Positions 18,536-44,695 of a stretch of 64,000 bases of DNA are shown here, in pieces. Source of the DNA: Escherichia coli (lineage in GTDB: Bacteria; Pseudomonadota; Gammaproteobacteria; Enterobacterales; Enterobacteriaceae); NCBI RefSeq assembly GCF_003334355.1, contig NZ_QOWP01000011.1; one strand, 5' to 3'. The notes under the pieces are model-generated. The model saw only the letters and a program-made list of their open reading frames with translations, searched no databases and was not told where the DNA came from. The position numbers and the translations under genes were made by a program. How positions within the stretch are numbered: position 1 is the stretch's first letter; every line of letters begins with the position of its first letter.

Positions 18536-19235
18536 ACTTCGTCATTATTTTTACTTTGTTCCCGCGCAGTTATCAAAAGCAAAAGGAATAGGTAAAAATA
18601 TTCTTCTCAAATTACAGTTAGTTATAAGGATTTCCTTAACTGCTTCTCCTCACCATCATGTTATTTTCGCCACATCATAATCCTGGGCTTGCTGAAGAAT
18701 AATTGAAATGATATTAGTAATTCCACTGCCTTTGGTAGAGGAAAGTGCTAAATAATAATCAATTGTTAAATTATTGTGCATTTCACTACTGGAACTGTAA
18801 TCAGAAAAGATAGACATGCTTAGCCAATCTCTATTTGATTGAATTGAAAGATGTTTGTTAAGGCATGGATGCAAGCTATAGATTCTGATACGGTCAATAA
18901 AAGAGAATTGCTTAACAATTTTGCAAAATGTATTGGCGAGTAAGAACCGCATTTGGTACTTTCCGGGCAACCGCCAGACGATTCTTTATTGGTAATGAGA
19001 ATAATTAACAATTAAAGAGCGTCGCGAAAGAATAATGTGTCTCGACAGGGGAGACACAGTACGAATCGACATAAGGTGATCGTCTGAATCACCAGAATAA
19101 ATAAAGTCGGTGATAGTAATACGTAACGATAAAGTAACCTGACAGCAGAAAGTCTCCGAGCCTGTGCAGGGTCCCAATCCGGGATTACACATGCTGGTTA
19201 ATACCAGTAATTATAATGAGGGAGTCCAAAAAACA

Positions 19236-34469: not shown

Positions 34470-35276
34470 TTAACTGCGCGTCGCCGCTTTCATCGGTTGT
34501 ACAAAAACTTTCAGTGCCGCCAGCATTTTCTCTGGCTCATTAATATGTTGCTCGATGATTTTAACAATGGCCGAACCAGAAATCGCGCCCGCAGCTCCTG
34601 CATCAATCGCTGCTTTTACCTGATCCGGGGCGGAAATACCAAATCCCTGCAATGGAGGTGCAGCGTTGTACTCTTTCAGCTTCGCAACCAGATGATTGAG
34701 GGGTAACGCGGCGCGGTTTTCTGCGCCGGTCACGCCTGCTCGTGACAGCAAATAGGTGTAACCACGACCGTAAGAGGCTATCTGGCGCAGCAGGTCGTCA
34801 TCGGCATTTGGCGGGCAGATGAAGATAGGTGCGACATTATGACGCAACGCGGCCTGGCGGAAGGGCGCGGACTCTTCAACTGGCACATCGGCAACCAGCA
34901 CCGAATCGACGCCGACTTTTTCGCACTGGGCATAAAACTCATCAATGCCTTTGTTAAACACCAGATTGGCATACATCAACAGGCCAATGGGAATGGTCGG
35001 GTGTTTCTGGCGAATCAGTGCCAGCATTTCAAAACATTGTGCCGGAGTCACACCTGCCGCAAAGGCGCGCAGAGTGGCGTTTTGAATCGTCGGGCCATCC
35101 GCCAGTGGGTCGGAGAAGGGGATACCTAACTCCAGCGCGTCAGCACCGGCTTCAATTAGCGTATCGATAATTTTCAATGACTGCTCAATGCCCGGATCAC
35201 CGAGCGTGACGAAAGGAACGAATGCGCCTTCTTTGCGCTCCTTCAACTGGGCAAACAGAGATTCGTAGCGTTCCAT
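34470..35276 (-). CDS. trpA: tryptophan synthase alpha subunit
   Basis: 268-aa [16 protein letters not shown]...; start overlaps trpB stop. Confidence 0.95.
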
Positions 35277-36469
35277 CAGATTTCCCCTCGTGCTTTCAAA
35301 ATATCGTGAACGGTGAAGATGTCTTTATCGCCGCGACCGGAAAGGTTAACCACCAGTAGCTGCTCTTTATCCGGGTTTTCGCGCATCATTTTCAACGCAT
35401 GGGCCAGGGCGTGGGAGGATTCCAGCGCCGGGATGATCCCTTCGTGCAGGCACAGCGTTTTGAAGGCTTCAAGGGCTTCATCATCGGTAATAGACACGTA
35501 ATCAGCGCGTCCAGTGCTGTTAAGATACGCGTGTTGTGGGCCGACAGACGGGAAATCCAGTCCGGCGGAGATGGAGTAAGATTCTTCAATCTGCCCGTCT
35601 TCGGTTTGCATCATCGGCGCTTTCATACCGAAATAGATACCCACGCGACCATGTTTTAGCGGTGCGCCGTGCTCGCCAGTTTCGATACCGTGACCACCTG
35701 GCTCCACACCAATCAGGCCGACGTTGGTTTCATTGATGAAATCAGCAAACATGCCGATGGCATTCGAACCGCCGCCAACACAGGCGATAACGGCATCCGG
35801 CAGGCGACCTTCTCTTTCCAGAATCTGCGCTTTGGTTTCTTCGCCAATCATCCGCTGAAACTCACGCACAATGGTCGGATAAGGATGCGGGCCAGCTGCG
35901 GTGCCCAGCATATAGTGCGCGGTTTCGTAACTACCGGACCAGTCGCGCAGCGCCTCGTTACAGGCATCTTTCAGCGTCGCGGAACCGCTATGCACCGGGA
36001 TCACTTCCGCACCCATTAAGCGCATACGAAAAACGTTAGGCGACTGGCGTTCAACGTCTTTGGCACCCATATAAATACGGCATTTCAGGCCGAGCAGGGC
36101 GCTGGCAAGGGCCGACGCCACGCCATGCTGACCGGCACCGGTTTCGGCGATGATTTCGGTTTTACCCATCCGCTTCGCCAGCAACGCCTGCCCCAGCACC
36201 TGGTTAGTTTTATGCGCGCCGCCGTGCAGCAAATCTTCACGCTTGAGATACAGCGTGGTGTTCGTCCCGGCTGTAATGTTCTGGCATTTGGTCAGCGCGG
36301 TTGGACGCCCGGCATAGTTTTTCAGCAGGTCGTTGAACTGAGCCTGAAATTCAGGATCTTTTTGCGCACTGACAAAAACTTCTTCCAGCTGGCGCAGAGC
36401 AGGCATCAGGATTTGTGGCACGTACATGCCGCCAAACTCACCAAAATAGGGGTTAAGTAATGTTGTCAT
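35276..36469 (-). CDS. trpB: tryptophan synthase beta subunit
   Basis: 397-aa ORF; PLP lysine context HGGAHKTNQ. Confidence 0.95.
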
Positions 36470-36480
36470 TGTTCCTTTCC

Positions 36481-37842
36481 TTAATATGCGCGCAGCGTCT
36501 GGAAAACCGAGGCCAAAAGACGTGCGTCTTTGATGCCCGGTTGCGACTCTACAGCAGAATTAAAATCAAGTCCGGCGCAGCCGGTTTGTGCCGCTTCCAC
36601 GCAGTTATCTGCGCCTAAGCCCCCCGCCAGCAGAACGTTGCCAAGCGATTGACCATTTAATAGTGACCAGTCAAAACGTTGCCCGCTTCCACCCTGGCCG
36701 TTGTCTAAAACATATTTATCAACGTGCTGAAACTCGCGGGCGGGCAGGGTTTCACCGACGCTTAATGCTTTCCAGATGGCAACATGTGCTGGCAGAGCTT
36801 CACGCAGCGTATCGATATACAGCTGTTCTTCATTACCATGCAGTTGCACTGCCGCCAGCGATAACACCTTAGCTTTGTCCACCACATCGGCAATATCGTG
36901 ATTGCGGAACACGCCAACATACTGCAACGGTGCCGCAGCCATCACTTCCTGCGCCTGTTCAACGTTGACGCAACGCGGTGATGTCGCAACAAAAATCAAC
37001 CCACCGTAAATCGCGCCCGCGTCATAAGCTGCTTTAGCATCTTGCCCACGCGTCAGGCCACATACTTTATTCTCACCCAGCAACACCCGGCGCACGGCGG
37101 CGTGCAAATCGTCATGGGCCATCAACGCCGAACCAATCAGAAAACCGTTAGCGAAGTGGCTTAACTCGCGCACCTGAGCGTAAGTATTGATGCCGGATTC
37201 GCTGATTACCGTCACGTTGTGCCCCAGTTTCGGCGCAAGCTCGCGGGTACGGTTGAGATCAATCGACAAATCACGCAGATCGCGGTTGTTGATGCCAACG
37301 ACCTTTGCCCCCAATGCAATGGCACGCTCCAGTTCCTCTTCATTACTGACTTCGGTCAGCACACCCATCTCCAGACTGTGGGCGACGGCGGCAAGCTGGC
37401 GATATTGTTCGTCATCCAGTACTGAAAGCATTAATAAGCAGGCATCAGCCTGGTAATAGCGCGCCAGATAGATCTGGTAAGGATCGATAATGAAGTCTTT
37501 ACATAAAATCGGCTGCGGGGCGATTTGGCTGACGATGGGGAGGAAATCAAAGCTCCCCTGAAAATATTTCTCATCAGTCAGCACCGAAATTGCCGAAGCG
37601 TAATGTTTATAAATGGCGGCAATGCGTGCTGGATCGAAATCATCACGGATCACGCCTTTTGACGGCGACGCTTTCTTGCACTCCAGAATAAACGCCGTGC
37701 GCGCACCCTGTAGCGCATCATAAAAATGTCGCGTGCTCGGCTGAACCTCATTCTGAAAACTGGCCAGCGGTTGCTGCTGTTTGCGGGTTTCTACCCAAAT
37801 CGCCTTGTCTGCGACGATTTTCGCTAAAACGGTTTGCATCAT
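36481..37842 (-). CDS. trpC: indole-3-glycerol-phosphate synthase / phosphoribosylanthranilate isomerase
   Basis: 453-aa bifunctional ORF. Confidence 0.95.
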
Positions 37843-39438
37843 TTACCCTCGTGCCGCCAGTGCGGTAACTCTGTCGTAAGCGGAACCACTGCGCAGTACC
37901 TCAAGAACGGTTTGCGCATTGGCTTGCAGATCTTCATGGCCATGCAGGCGCATTAACATGGCGACGTTCGCAGCGACGGCTGCTTCATGGGCGGCGTCGC
38001 CTTTACCTTGTAACAAGCGTGTTAAAATGTCACGGTTTTCTTCCGGTGTTCCGCCTGCCAGTTGCTCCTGGTGGTAGGGAGTCAGGCCAAAATCTTCAGC
38101 GGTCAATTGATAGCTCTTAATTTCGCCGTCATGCAGCTCGGCAACGATTGTCGGCGCGTGTAATGAAACTTCATCCATCCCGCCGCTGTGCACCACCGCC
38201 GCGCGTTGATACCCCAGCACGCGCAAGGTTTCGGCAATCGGCAGCACCAGTTCCGGACTATAAACACCAATTAACGCCAGCGGCGGATGCGCCGGGTTAA
38301 TCAATGGCCCCAGCACATTGAACAGGGTGCGGGTTTTCAGTTGCTGGCGAACCGGCATCGCGTGGCGGAATCCGGTGTGATACTTCGGCGCAAAGAGGAA
38401 ACATACACCTAACTCATCCAGCGCCTGGCGCGATTTATCGGCGTTCATATCAAGATTAATACCGAACGCCGCCAGCAGATCGGACGAACCTGATTTACTG
38501 GAGACGCTACGGTTGCCGTGTTTCGCCACTTTCAGCCCACAGGCCGCGGCGACAAACGCACTGGCGGTAGAAATATTGATACTGTTGCTGCCGTCACCGC
38601 CAGTACCGACGATATCAGCAAACAGATAATCCGGGCGCGGGAACGGCGCGGCGTTTTCCAGTAGCGCGGTTGCTGCTCCGGCGATCTCGTTCGGGTGCTC
38701 ACCGCGAATTTTCATGCTCACCAGCGCCGCCGCCAGTTGTTCCGGCTTCAGCTCGCCACGCACCACCGCTGAAAACAGCTGGTGGCTTTCTTGTTGGCTA
38801 AGCGTCTGCGCCTGATACAGTTTTTCCAGAATCGGTTGCAGCGTGTTGGCTGGCTCTAGTTTCTGCTGCGCCCAGGCCAGCGTTTGTTCCAGCAGGCGAG
38901 CGCCCTGGGTGGTGAGAATGGATTCCGGATGGAACTGGAATCCACAAACGCGATCCGCATCGTGACGTACTGCCATCACCATGCCATTAAAATGGGCGTT
39001 GATGGTTAAACCGGCCGGAATGTTACTGCCAACCAGCGAGTGATAACGCGCCACCGGCAGCGGGTTTGTTAATCCGGCAAACATCGCCTGACCGTCATGT
39101 TCAATGCTCGACGCTTTACCGTGAAGAATTTCGCCCGCCTGACCGACATAGCCCCCGTAAGCTTCGACAATTGCCTGATGTCCGAGGCAAATGCCAATAA
39201 TGGGCAGCTTGCCACGCAAGCGGGTGAGGAGTTCCGGCATACAACCGGCTTCGCTCGGCACACCGGGGCCAGGAGAAAGCATCAGTACCGGATTGCTCAT
39301 CGTCGCCAGGCGTTCAATTAAGGTCTGCGCCGGAATATGGTTGCGGTAAATCACCACGTTATGACCATTGCTGCGCAACTGATCTGCCAGGTTGTACGTA
39401 AAAGAGTCGATATTATCGAGCAGCAGAATGTCAGCCAT
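37843..39438 (-). CDS. trpD: anthranilate synthase component II / anthranilate phosphoribosyltransferase
   Basis: 531-aa ORF; glutamine amidotransferase N-domain plus PRT domain; start overlaps trpE stop. Confidence 0.95.
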
Positions 39439-41000
39439 CAGAAAGTCTCCTGTGCATGATGCGCGGTGGCAATAGCGCGCAGTACAGCGCGGGCTTTGTT
39501 ACGGGTTTCGTCGGCTTCCGACTGCGGAACAGAATCAAGGACTACACCAGCACCCGCTTGCACGGTGGCGATACCGTTTTCCACCAGCGCCGAGCGGATC
39601 ACAATGCAGGTGTCGAGATCGCCATGCGCGGTGAAATAACCTACCGCGCCGCCGTAGCTGCCGCGGCGACGACCTTCCGCCTCGGCAATTAACTGCATAG
39701 CGCGTACTTTCGGCGCACCGCTTAACGTCCCCATATTCATACAGGCGCGATAAGCGTGCAGGGCGTCAAGATCGTGACGCAGTTCGCCGACTACGCGAGA
39801 GACGAGGTGCATCACATAGGAATAACGGTCAACTTTGGTGAGATCGGCGACGTAGCGGCTGCCGGGGGTGCAAATGCGTGCCAGATCATTACGGGCGAGA
39901 TCAACCAGCATCAGATGTTCAGACAGCTCTTTATGATCGGTACGCATTTCCAGTTCAATACGGCTGTCGAGATCTCTGTCCAGTGAACCATCGGCGCGAC
40001 GACCGCGTGGGCGTGTTCCGGCAATCGGGTAGATCTCAATCTGGCGGCTGGTGGCATCATACTTGAGCGAGCTTTCCGGCGACGCGCCAAATAGGGTGAA
40101 ATCATTATCCTGCATAAAAAACATGTACGGGCTGGGATTACTCTTTTTCAGCACGTAATAGGCCGCCAGCGGTGACGGGCAGGGCAGAGAGAAACGGCGA
40201 GATGGCACCACCTGGAAAATTTCTCCAGCGCGAATCGCTTTTTGCAACAAACGCACTACGCCACCGAACTCTTCATCGCTCTGATTACATTCACAACGCA
40301 TATGCGGCACGGAAACCACTGGCAGCGGCGGCGCGGCTTCGGTCAGTTGCTGACGTAGTTCGTTCAGGCGAGCAGTGAGACGTTGTTTTTCTTCTTCATT
40401 CGGAGCAAACAGGCTGGCCTGAATACGGGTGCTTTTTTTCTGATGGTCAATCACCATCAGCGTTTCAGCGAGATAAAAACAGAAATCAGGGCAGTTATTT
40501 TCCGCTGACAGTTGCGGTAAATCTTCAAATCCCGCCACAAGGTCATAAGAGAACAGGCCGCCGAAGAACATGGCTTCTCGTTCTTCCTTCGGTACATTCA
40601 ACAGATTCTGCAATAAACGGAAAGCGTCAAAAACCGAAAGGGAGCATAAGCGGGCGTCTTCATCCAGCAGTGGACTGACAGGGGGGAAGCGCAGCACACG
40701 GCAGTTTGGTGATTGTTCACTTTCTACACCCGCAGGCAGGGCGTTATCCAGTAGTGCCAGCAGGGCTTCGCCGTTGCCGGAAAGTGCCTGGATTGTGACA
40801 GTGTCACCTAAAGCTGTAATGCGCAGCGCACTGTCTACCAGCAGCAGGCTTTTTAAATCATCTTTGCTGTCGATATCTGCGGATTCCAGCAGCAGCGTTG
40901 CCGGACGATCCCCACACAACTGGTGAAAAAGCGCGGTGGGATTGTCGCGATAAGCGCCTTCGCAGGTTAGCAGTTCGAGAGTCGGTTTTTGTGTTTGCAT
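39438..41000 (-). CDS. trpE: anthranilate synthase component I
   Basis: 520-aa [31 protein letters not shown]... Confidence 0.95.
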
Positions 41001-41021
41001 TGTTATTCTCTAATTTTGTTC

Positions 41022-41048
41022 AAAAAAAAGCCCGCTCATTAGGCGGGC
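41022..41048 (-). terminator. trp attenuator (3:4 terminator hairpin)
   Basis: Minus-strand AGCCCGCCTAATGAGCGGGCT followed by T8. Confidence 0.85.
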
Positions 41049-41091
41049 TGGGTATCTGATTGCTTTACGCATGGTGAATACACTGCCCGTT

Positions 41092-41136
41092 TCAGGAAGT
41101 GCGCCACCAACCTTTCAGTACGAAAATTGCTTTCAT
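41092..41136 (-). CDS. trpL: trp leader peptide
   Basis: ATG at 41136; 14 codons [14 protein letters not shown] with tandem Trp codons at 41104-41109. Confidence 0.85.
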
Positions 41137-41159
41137 TGTCGATACCCTTTTTACGTGAA

Positions 41160-41198
41160 CTTTCGTACTAGTTAACTAGTTCGATGATTAATTGTCAA
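41160..41198 (-). promoter_or_regulatory. trp promoter with TrpR operator
   Basis: Minus-strand -35 TTGACA at 41198-41193; palindromic operator ACTAGTTAACTAGT at 41167-41180 overlapping -10 TTAACTA. Confidence 0.8.
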
Positions 41199-41273
41199 CA
41201 GCTCATTTCAGAATATTTGCCAGAACCGTTATGATGTCGGCGCAAAAAACATTATCCAGAACGGGAGTGCGCC

Positions 41274-42155
41274 TTGAGCGACACGAATTACGCAGTGATT
41301 TACGACCTGCACAGCCATACCACAGCTTCCGATGGCTGCCTGACGCCAGAAGCATTGGTGCACCGTGCAGTCGAGATGCGCGTCGGCACCCTGGCGATCA
41401 CCGACCATGACACCACAGCTGCAATCGCACCAGCAAGAGAGGAAATTTCACGTTCGGGACTGGCGCTGAATCTTATTCCCGGCGTGGAAATTTCCACGGT
41501 CTGGGAAAATCATGAAATTCATATTGTCGGGCTGAATATTGATATTACTCATCCGCTAATGTGTGAGTTCCTCGCGCAGCAGACAGAACGGCGCAATCAG
41601 CGGGCGCAGCTCATTGCCGAAAGACTTGAAAAAACGCAAATACCTGGGGCGCTGGAAGGCGCGCAACGACTGGCTCAGGGCGGCGCAGTGACGCGCGGTC
41701 ATTTTGCGCGTTTCCTTGTGGAGTGCGGCAAAGCCAGTTCAATGGCGGATGTCTTTAAAAAGTATCTGGCGCGCGGGAAAACCGGATACGTTCCGCCACA
41801 GTGGTGTACAATAGAACAAGCTATTGATGTCATTCATCATTCTGGCGGTAAGGCGGTGCTAGCTCATCCTGGGCGGTACAATCTTAGTGCTAAATGGCTG
41901 AAAAGATTGGTTGCGCATTTTGCCGAACACCACGGCGACGCGATGGAAGTCGCGCAGTGCCAGCAATCGCCCAATGAACGCACCCAGTTGGCGACCCTTG
42001 CGCGTCAGCATCATTTATGGGCATCACAAGGATCTGATTTTCATCAGCCATGCCCGTGGATCGAACTGGGTCGTAAACTCTGGCTGCCCGCAGGCGTTGA
42101 AGGCGTCTGGCAGCTATGGGAACAGCCGCAGAACACCACAGAGAGGGAATTATGA
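41274..42155 (+). CDS. yciV: PHP-domain 5'-3' exoribonuclease (RNase AM)
   Basis: 293-aa ORF with PHP motif DLHSHTTASDG. Confidence 0.9.
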   Translation: MSDTNYAVIYDLHSHTTASDGCLTPEALVHRAVEMRVGTLAITDHDTTAAIAPAREEISRSGLALNLIPGVEISTVWENHEIHIVGLNIDITHPLMCEFLAQQTERRNQRAQLIAERLEKTQIPGALEGAQRLAQGGAVTRGHFARFLVECGKASSMADVFKKYLARGKTGYVPPQWCTIEQAIDVIHHSGGKAVLAHPGRYNLSAKWLKRLVAHFAEHHGDAMEVAQCQQSPNERTQLATLARQHHLWASQGSDFHQPCPWIELGRKLWLPAGVEGVWQLWEQPQNTTEREL

Positions 42156-42799: not shown

Positions 42800-44695
42800 A
42801 TGGCAGGGAAGTTTCGCTGCATTTTGCTGTTGATAGCAGGGCTGTTTGTATCATCTCTAAGTTATGCAGAAAACACGGAGATCCCTTCTTATGAAGAAGG
42901 GATCTCGCTCTTTGATGTTGAAGCCACTCTGCAACCAGATGGGGTGCTCGACATCAAAGAAAATATTCATTTTCAGGCGCGAAATCAGCAGATTAAGCAC
43001 GGCTTTTATCGTGATTTACCACGACTCTGGATGCAGCCTGATGGGGACGCTGCACTGCTGAACTATCATATTGTTGGCGTCACCCGTGATGGTATTCCTG
43101 AACCCTGGCATCTTGACTGGCATATCGGGTTAATGAGTATTGTCGTGGGCGATAAACAACGTTTCTTGCCTCAAGGCGACTATCATTATCAAATTCATTA
43201 TCAGGTTAAAAATGCTTTCCTGCGTGAGGGGGATTCTGATCTGCTAATCTGGAACGTGACCGGTAACCACTGGCCGTTTGAAATTTATAAGACCCGTTTT
43301 TCTCTCCAGTTCTCTAATATTGCGGGTAATCCATTTAGCGAAATCGATCTCTTTACCGGAGAAGAGGGCGACACATATCGTAATGGCCGCATCCTTGAGG
43401 ACGGAAGAATTGAATCCCGCGATCCGTTTTATCGTGAAGATTTCACGGTCCTCTACCGCTGGCCTCACGCTTTACTTAGCAATGCCTCGGCTCCGCAAAC
43501 GACGAATATTTTCAGCCATCTTCTTTTACCCTCCACGTCATCGTTGTTAATTTGGTTTCCGTGTCTGTTCCTGGTTTGTGGATGGTTATATCTCTGGAAG
43601 CGCAGGCCGCAATTTACGCCGGTAGATGTGATTGAAACCGATGTCATTCCGCCAGATTACACGCCCGGCATGTTACGTCTCGATGCGAAGCTAGTTTACG
43701 ACGATAAAGGTTTTTGTGCCGATATCGTAAATCTGATTGTGAAAGGAAAAATTCATCTGGAAGATCAGTCTGACAAGAACCAGCAAATCCTGATTCGTGT
43801 TAATGAAGGCGCGACCAGAAATAATGCGGTATTACTGCCCGCAGAGCAGTTATTACTGGAAGCGTTATTTCGTAAAGGCGATAAGGTCGTTCTTACGGGG
43901 AGACGCAACAGAGTCTTACGCAGGGCATTTTTACGGATGCAGAAATTTTATCTGCCGCGTAAAAAGTCTTCGTTTTACCGGTCTGATACTTTTTTGCAAT
44001 GGGGTGGACTGGCAATATTGGCGGTCATTCTTTACGGTAACTTGAGTCCTGTAGGCTGGGCAGGAATGAGTCTGGTGGGCGATATGTTTATTATGATCTG
44101 CTGGATTATTCCTTTTTTATTTTGTTCCCTTGAGCTTTTGTTTGCCCGCGATGATGACAAGCCTTGCGTTAATCGTGTAATCATCACTTTGTTTTTACCA
44201 CTGATTTGTTCAGGCGTGGCCTTCTATTCTCTCTACATCAATGTCGGAGATGTATTCTTTTACTGGTATATGCCAGCGGGTTATTTTACCGCTGTTTTCC
44301 TGACCGGTTATCTCACTGGCATGGGGTATATTTTTCTGCCAAAGTTTACCCAAACTGGACAGCAACGTTATGCCCACGGTGAAGCTATCGTTAACTATCT
44401 TGCGCGTAAAGAGGCGGCAACACACAGTGGGCGGCGTCGGAAAGGGGAAACACGGAAACTGGATTATGCGTTGCTAGGTTGGGCGGTCTCGGCAAACCTT
44501 GGCAGAGAATGGGCAGCACGTATCACCCCATCACTCACAGCGGCTGTTCGCGCCCCGGAAATTGCCCGTAGCGGCGTTTTATTCTCATTACAGACGCACC
44601 TAAGTTGCGGGGCCTATACCAGTTTGTTGGGGCGAAGTTATTCCGGTGGTGGTGCTGGCGGCGGCGCGGGTGGCGGAGGCGGTGGTGGCTGGTAA
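42800..44695 (+). CDS. yciQ: DUF2207-family membrane protein
   Basis: 631-aa ORF with signal peptide, central TM segments and C-terminal Gly-rich tail. Confidence 0.85.
   Translation: MAGKFRCILLLIAGLFVSSLSYAENTEIPSYEEGISLFDVEATLQPDGVLDIKENIHFQARNQQIKHGFYRDLPRLWMQPDGDAALLNYHIVGVTRDGIPEPWHLDWHIGLMSIVVGDKQRFLPQGDYHYQIHYQVKNAFLREGDSDLLIWNVTGNHWPFEIYKTRFSLQFSNIAGNPFSEIDLFTGEEGDTYRNGRILEDGRIESRDPFYREDFTVLYRWPHALLSNASAPQTTNIFSHLLLPSTSSLLIWFPCLFLVCGWLYLWKRRPQFTPVDVIETDVIPPDYTPGMLRLDAKLVYDDKGFCADIVNLIVKGKIHLEDQSDKNQQILIRVNEGATRNNAVLLPAEQLLLEALFRKGDKVVLTGRRNRVLRRAFLRMQKFYLPRKKSSFYRSDTFLQWGGLAILAVILYGNLSPVGWAGMSLVGDMFIMICWIIPFLFCSLELLFARDDDKPCVNRVIITLFLPLICSGVAFYSLYINVGDVFFYWYMPAGYFTAVFLTGYLTGMGYIFLPKFTQTGQQRYAHGEAIVNYLARKEAATHSGRRRKGETRKLDYALLGWAVSANLGREWAARITPSLTAAVRAPEIARSGVLFSLQTHLSCGAYTSLLGRSYSGGGAGGGAGGGGGGGW

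Follow-up and report, generated by a model that had tools for sequence, protein, structure and literature searches.

The window analyzed here is a stretch of 64,000 nucleotides from Escherichia coli (contig NZ_QOWP01000011.1 of assembly GCF_003334355.1). Near position 41,000 its minus strand carries a 162-nt leader with the short ORF trpL. The structural genes trpEDCBA lie directly downstream on the same strand (Table 1). All five ORFs, trpE, D, C, B and A, are of K-12 length and free of internal stops. TrpE, TrpD and TrpA have the K-12 protein sequences and the five Trp proteins are identical to those of K-12 or nearly so. An initial annotation, made from the letters of the window, had described the locus as intact and this was upheld.

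Table 1. Coordinates of the trp regulatory region and structural genes in the window. Numbers with a plus sign are relative to the leader transcription start (+1).
Feature	Position	Strand	Remarks
trp promoter -35 hexamer TTGACA	41193..41198	minus	identical to K-12
trp promoter -10 hexamer TTAACT	41170..41175	minus	17-nt spacer; identical to K-12
TrpR operator	41164..41183	minus	20-bp palindrome CGAACTAGTTAACTAGTACG; overlaps -10 hexamer; identical to K-12
Position -1	41163	minus	A in window, C in K-12
Transcription start +1 of trp leader	41162	minus	placed by K-12 numbering
GGGUAUC, leader ribosome-binding region	41141..41147	minus	+16 to +22; partner GAUACCC at +107 to +113 (41056-41050)
trpL leader ORF	41092..41136	minus	ATG 41136-41134, 14 sense codons, TGA 41094-41092; read from sequence
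Tandem Trp codons UGG UGG	41104..41109	minus	codons 10-11; sensing site; +54 to +59
Region 1	41093..41109	minus	+54 to +70; 5' strand of the 1:2 pause (anti-antiterminator) hairpin
Region 2	41072..41089	minus	+74 to +91; partner of region 1 or region 3
Region 3	41042..41056	minus	+107 to +121; 107-119 with region 2, 114-121 with region 4
Region 4	41029..41037	minus	+126 to +134; 3' strand of terminator stem
Terminator hairpin	41049-41029	minus	AGCCCGC 41049-41043, loop CTAATGA 41042-41036, GCGGGCT 41035-41029
U8 tract, end of ~140-nt attenuated transcript	41022..41029	minus	+134 to +141; exactly 8 T
trpE	39438..41000	minus	first structural gene, 520 aa
trpD	37843-39438	minus	531 aa
trpC	36481-37842	minus	453 aa
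trpB	35276-36469	minus	397 aa
trpA	34470-35276	minus	268 aa

At trpL the minus strand reads TTGACAATTAATCATCGAACTAGTTAACTAGTACGAAAGTTCACGTAAAAAGGGTATCGACA ATG AAA GCA ATT TTC GTA CTG AAA GGT TGG TGG CGC ACT TCC TGA. A leader ribosome-binding site (AAGGG) is located 8-12 nt 5' of the ATG and translation of the ORF is predicted from the sequence. RefSeq genomes with an identical sequence have this ORF annotated as trpL. Both the 14-codon ORF and its tandem Trp codons had been picked out in the initial annotation and both are borne out. TGGTGG occurs at 80 sites in the window, and only the one in trpL is in frame within an ATG ORF of at most 30 codons that is followed by a T run. The composite pattern of TGGTGG, 48-78 nt, GCCCGC, 4-9 nt and GCGGGCTTTT had a single occurrence in the window and did not occur in any of 100 shuffles.

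The terminator hairpin was also recovered by a terminator scan, with seven pairs of which six are G-C. Its earlier placement at 41048-41022 was correct for the hairpin, the loop and the run of eight T, while the start had to be moved by one base to 41049. The description of the 3' part as GCGGGCU plus U8 counted one U twice, as the run of eight T begins with the U that closes the stem. The trpE ATG begins at 41000, 21 nt past the last T, which agrees with the earlier statement that the terminator lies immediately before trpE. The length of the terminated transcript has been given as 137-141 nt (PMC4615214). A bidirectional terminator was considered and rejected; read on the plus strand, the hairpin is preceded by A8 and is not followed by a T run.

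The 271 nt from the promoter to the start of trpE were aligned with E. coli K-12 MG1655 and differed by a single base, the A for C at position -1, which is outside the transcript. The 162-nt leader is base-for-base that of MG1655. Compared with K-12 trpL (b1265), the window has the same peptide, regions 1-4, U8 tract, promoter hexamers, operator and distance to trpE. The genes also have the same order, trpLEDCBA, and rnm is divergent in both. RefSeq sequences matching a 351-nt query at 100% were annotated with trpL, the Trp leader region, trpE and rnm. Among complete E. coli genomes, the 162-nt leader was present in 5,422 of 5,426; of the 5,423 matching records, 5,390 had an identity of at least 99%. 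The Rfam family RF00513 (Trp_leader) matched at 41115-41022 on the minus strand with a score of 93.1 bits (E = 1e-18), covering model positions 1-100 of 100; the gathering score of this family is 41. Hrs1, isrK and a betaproteobacterial toxic sRNA also matched the terminator. Their scores of 16-17 bits compare with gathering scores of 50-56 and these matches were set aside as generic terminator resemblance. The sequence reading, the RF00513 score and the identity with K-12 together confirm the complete trp attenuation module that had been claimed for this position. Its labelling as known biology was appropriate.

Upstream of the leader lies TTGACA-N17-TTAACT, which from established knowledge we take to be the trp promoter. 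The 20-bp palindrome over its -10 hexamer gives the arrangement of a TrpR-type promoter and operator. Binding of TrpR to the palindrome is presumed here on the basis of its sequence and established knowledge. The transcription start is likewise assumed to be that known from the literature on K-12. With +1 at 41162 the elements fall at their canonical positions, with AUG at +27, UGG UGG at +54 to +59, UGA at +69 to +71 and the U tract at +134 to +141. A generic sigma-70 scan of 40800-41500 did not report the trp promoter, and its sole report was an unrelated site on the plus strand. The scan missed the promoter because TTAACT is without an A at position 2, and a negative from such a scan is weak evidence.

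Position -1 sits directly past the operator palindrome. Of 5,426 complete E. coli genomes, 166 carry A there and 5,166 carry C. The minority allele, A, might move the start of transcription by one base. An effect on the attenuator is not expected.

The leader RNA was folded by minimum energy with ViennaRNA, numbered from +1. In the free transcript two hairpins were formed. The 1:2 hairpin paired 54-70 with 74-91 (15 bp) and the 3:4 hairpin, the terminator, paired 114-121 with 126-134 (8 bp). Region 1 begins at the first Trp codon (+54). The polymerase presumably pauses just past region 2, at about +92 (41071). The trpL pause has been described as hairpin- and NusA-dependent (PMC9291695). The transcript was more stable than its dinucleotide shuffles by 3.6 standard deviations (z -3.6), and none of the 200 shuffles was as good. 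Folding of 41020-41140 had been put forward as a check that would recover the 1:2, 2:3 and 3:4 structures. Helices 1:2 and 3:4 were recovered in this way; the unconstrained fold of 41020-41140 never gave 2:3 and contained only 1:2, 3:4 and a long-range helix that joins the ribosome-binding region to a distal segment and is taken up below.

The 2:3 helix was obtained once region 1 was masked and region 4 was absent. A ribosome footprint of 30 nt, with the second Trp codon at its centre (mask 42-71), was combined with a transcript end at 125, which precedes region 4. The minimum-energy structure was then 2:3, with 74-86 paired to 107-119 (11 bp). With the footprint placed at the stop codon, region 2 was partly covered, 3:4 formed and 2:3 was absent. 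The energies of the isolated helices were -17.5, -15.6 and -14.0 kcal/mol. Helix 2:3 uses nt 74-86, which 1:2 also needs, and nt 114-119, which 3:4 also needs, so it cannot coexist with either. The initial annotation had made its claim depend on exclusive 2:3 and 3:4 pairing, and the claim stands, as the six shared nucleotides, 114-119, set these two helices against each other.

Equilibrium folding of the full-length RNA with region 1 masked was rejected as a test of 2:3, as the terminator still wins. The terminator state had -29.0 kcal/mol vs -16.8 kcal/mol with region 1 masked, and -20.3 vs -15.6 kcal/mol when the 5' part was excluded as well. The terminator state is the thermodynamic minimum of the full-length RNA even with region 1 masked. 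For this reason plain RNA folding alone cannot display the antiterminator, and co-transcriptional truncation together with a ribosome mask is needed. A terminator that wins at equilibrium points to a kinetic switch, in which readthrough would depend on 2:3 forming first. The case for the readthrough state is a kinetic one. A kinetic, pause-synchronised model is the accepted view (PMC4615214; PMC9291695).

A frame-blind scan for the composite pattern in one genome per species gave at least 120 loci. A TrpE homologue lay directly downstream on the same strand at 39 of the 120 among the matches listed. These 39 loci came from Enterobacterales, Vibrio, Shewanella, Aeromonas, Idiomarina, an Accumulibacter MAG, Sphingomonadales and a Bacteroidota genome. 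At every one of the 39 trpE-linked loci among the matches listed, a short ORF reads through TGGTGG in the frame that gives WW or WWW. Two thirds of the pattern loci listed had no adjacent trpE match. About six random matches had been expected beforehand, an estimate that was far too low because terminators of the GCCCGC/GCGGGC type are common.

The architecture was compared by a three-helix test, in which an antiterminator had to lie on at least 4 nt of the terminator 5' arm and its partner strand had to be able to pair with the Trp-codon region. With the window and E. albertii included, 40 of 41 leaders passed the test. Its background was 27 of 80 (34%) among the same-pattern loci listed without adjacent trpE, at least two of the 80 being Trp-gene leaders themselves, and 71 of 500 (14%) among shuffles of the window. 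Sequence elements, three mutually exclusive helices with 2:3 winning only before region 4 is present, and a cross-species architecture are thus in place.

Covariation was examined in an alignment of 20 Enterobacterales species. For 1:2 and 3:4, 87% of cells were paired vs 28-60% with slid partners. Conservation of 3:4 is uninformative in this alignment because the search pattern fixed its stem. In 1:2, five pairs were altered on both sides, among them one that was C-G in seven sequences and U-A in seven. GGGC at +75 to +78 in region 2 was invariant in all 20. Covariation in 2:3 was sought in the same alignment and not found; the CGGGC:GCCCG core does not vary, and the pairs distal to it could not be aligned. 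This absence speaks neither for nor against the helix. Zhu and Meyer have noted low covariation of the antiterminator and no direct structure probing of it (PMC4615214).

The trp leaders of other Enterobacterales, Vibrio, Shewanella and Aeromonas have in common with the window a short ORF in which two to three Trp codons follow one another, a U-tract terminator of the GCCCGC/GCGGGC type immediately before trpE, and the 1:2, 2:3 and 3:4 alternatives. They differ in the length of the peptide (14 to about 40 aa), in spacer lengths and in the distal part of 2:3, and the Vibrio leaders have extra Trp codons. A short ORF with WW or WWW and a GCCCGC/GCGGGC-U terminator after it was also seen at three loci where the next gene gave no full trpE match. 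In a Sphingosinicella MAG a TrpD-like ORF begins 31 nt after the terminator, in Parasutterella secunda the leader precedes a periplasmic-binding-protein-like ORF, and in Roseivirga pacifica it precedes a truncated TrpE-like ORF. These three may be Trp attenuators on other Trp-related genes.

The region in the window is almost certainly the regulatory region of the E. coli trp operon, with promoter, TrpR operator and a 162-nt leader that contains trpL and a ribosome-mediated attenuator. The sequence and structural marks of an enterobacterial ribosome-mediated trp attenuator were found, namely the RF00513 match, the leader ORF, the terminator, an exclusive 2:3 helix and a location before the trp genes. 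Nothing contradicts the attenuator explanation. The feature is already known in every respect.

By this mechanism RNA polymerase would start at 41162 and make regions 1 and 2, the 1:2 hairpin would fold and the polymerase would pause just after it. A ribosome beginning on trpL would release the pause, so that translation would be coupled to transcription. When charged tRNA-Trp is scarce the ribosome would stall at UGG UGG and cover region 1. Region 2, thus freed, would pair with region 3 as this emerges, tying up the 5' arm of the terminator and allowing readthrough into trpEDCBA. When Trp is plentiful the ribosome would reach UGA and cover part of region 2, and 3:4 would form. With trpL untranslated, 1:2 would persist and 3:4 would again form. 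Once 3:4 has formed, transcription would stop in the U8 tract and an RNA of about 140 nt would be released. Attenuation would be layered on repression by TrpR. Pausing, ribosome stalling, regulation in vivo and Trp-dependent termination and readthrough are expected to operate in this strain because its leader is identical to the K-12 leader used in the experiments. The mutational evidence for the terminator and the antiterminator has been summarised (PMC4615214).

The value of the locus is as a positive control, in that a complete attenuator was recognised from raw sequence with coordinates within 1 nt. The window is an ordinary segment of E. coli chromosome with an intact trp operon whose regulation, going by sequence identity, should be normal.

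The ORF with Trp codons and the hairpin might in principle be a chance juxtaposition before trpE that has no part in sensing, leaving regulation to TrpR repression alone. Short ORFs and GC-rich hairpins are common, and the pass rates of shuffles and of same-pattern loci in the three-helix test (14% and 34%, the latter among the loci listed) are generic points in its favour. Against it stand the single occurrence of the composite pattern in the window and its absence from 100 shuffles, the RF00513 score of 93 bits, the in-frame WW or WWW at 39 of 39 trpE-linked loci among those listed, which belong to several orders, and the compensatory changes in 1:2. The sequence is moreover identical to the allele that has been the subject of mutational work for decades (PMC4615214). 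The probability of a chance juxtaposition is close to nil and for practical purposes this explanation is already refuted. A further proposal concerns the fate of the terminated RNA. The 140-nt leader RNA (41162-41022) may also be the Hfq-dependent trans-acting sRNA rnTrpL, with a role of its own for the trpL peptide. Roles in trans have been reported from both E. coli and Sinorhizobium. In E. coli, according to a 2025 review (PMC12612679) that draws on Li et al. 2021 (PMC8354599), the 140-nt rnTrpL pairs with dnaA mRNA and destabilises it, and it also regulates sanA and mhpC. The leader in the window is identical to that of K-12, so any property of the K-12 RNA would be shared here, and the extreme conservation of the leader within E. 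coli is compatible with an added constraint. This conservation is, however, already explained by the overlapping requirements of coding and of the 1:2, 2:3 and 3:4 helices, and attenuation is far better established than the trans role. The chances that the RNA has this second role appear about even. Such a role would add to attenuation and would not replace it, giving one conserved sequence with two functions.

Other attenuators of amino acid operons were compared with the trp leader. The E. coli hisL, pheL, thrL, leuL and ilvL attenuators share its logic of a leader rich in cognate codons, a pause hairpin and alternative structures (PMC9291695; established knowledge). They differ in having other cognate codons, usually in longer runs, such as the seven His codons in hisL. 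They form separate Rfam families and their sequences are unrelated. In Bacillus subtilis the TRAP system reaches the same outcome, in that Trp decides whether the antiterminator or the terminator forms in the trp leader. The TRAP protein binds (G/U)AG repeats, 9-11 triplets spaced by 2-3 nt, with no translating ribosome and no leader peptide. No TRAP-type (G/U)AG array was seen in the 162-nt leader and a leader peptide ORF is present, so the region is not of this type. The ribosome-mediated attenuator is retained as the reading of the leader.

The long-range helix of the unconstrained fold joins the leader ribosome-binding region to a segment directly 5' of the terminator stem. In the minimum-energy fold of the terminated leader GGGUAUC and GAUACCC form a 7-bp helix. 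The duplex had an energy of -12.4 kcal/mol and 9 of 2,000 shuffles were as good. GGUAUC and GAUACC were invariant in 12 Enterobacteriaceae, and the pair adjoining this core was swapped from U-A to G-C in two taxa. The six core pairs, being invariant, showed no covariation in the 12 Enterobacteriaceae, and the alignment was unreliable outside them. Comparative support for the pairing is limited to the per-sequence duplexes and the U-A to G-C swap. The helix may be a fourth conserved pairing confined to the terminated transcript, where it would stop further translation of trpL and could shape the RNA for the rnTrpL role; the evidence for this reading is evenly poised. Pairing of the ribosome-binding site was reportedly proposed for E. 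coli by Das et al. in 1983 (PNAS 80:2879), as a limit on leader peptide synthesis. The helix probably corresponds to the pairing that was described in the 1980s as shutting off translation. If true, the present reading mostly re-confirms old work with comparative data.

Some further observations were made in the window. The whole window is collinear with K-12 1,280,749-1,345,945 at 99.3-99.5% identity. The K-12 copy of IS5 between ychE and oppA (IS5U, 1,299,499-1,300,693) is absent at about 18748-18751 of the window and is the only K-12 element lacking. The absence of IS5U and the collinearity of the rest indicate by sequence that the strain is a close relative of K-12 and not K-12 itself.

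Near the trp locus, the window and K-12 both carry a 631-aa yciQ ORF (42800-44695 of the window compared). In E. coli NT1N25 (NZ_CP075484.1), which has a trp leader region 100% identical to that of the window, rluB follows directly after yciO and no yciQ is annotated. This looks like presence/absence variation of yciQ beside the trp locus. The tyrT-tyrV locus is located at 5961-6875 on the minus strand, with tRNA-Tyr genes at 6794-6875 and 6500-6581, in the same layout as in K-12. Four copies of the RtT repeat (Rfam RF00391, 133-134 bits each) are interleaved with these tRNA-Tyr genes. A strong match to the enterobacterial sRNA family STnc180 (Rfam, 198 bits) was found at 53555-53757 on the plus strand, corresponding to about 1,335,501-1,335,703 in K-12. 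It lies in the ymiC region, between cysB and acnA.
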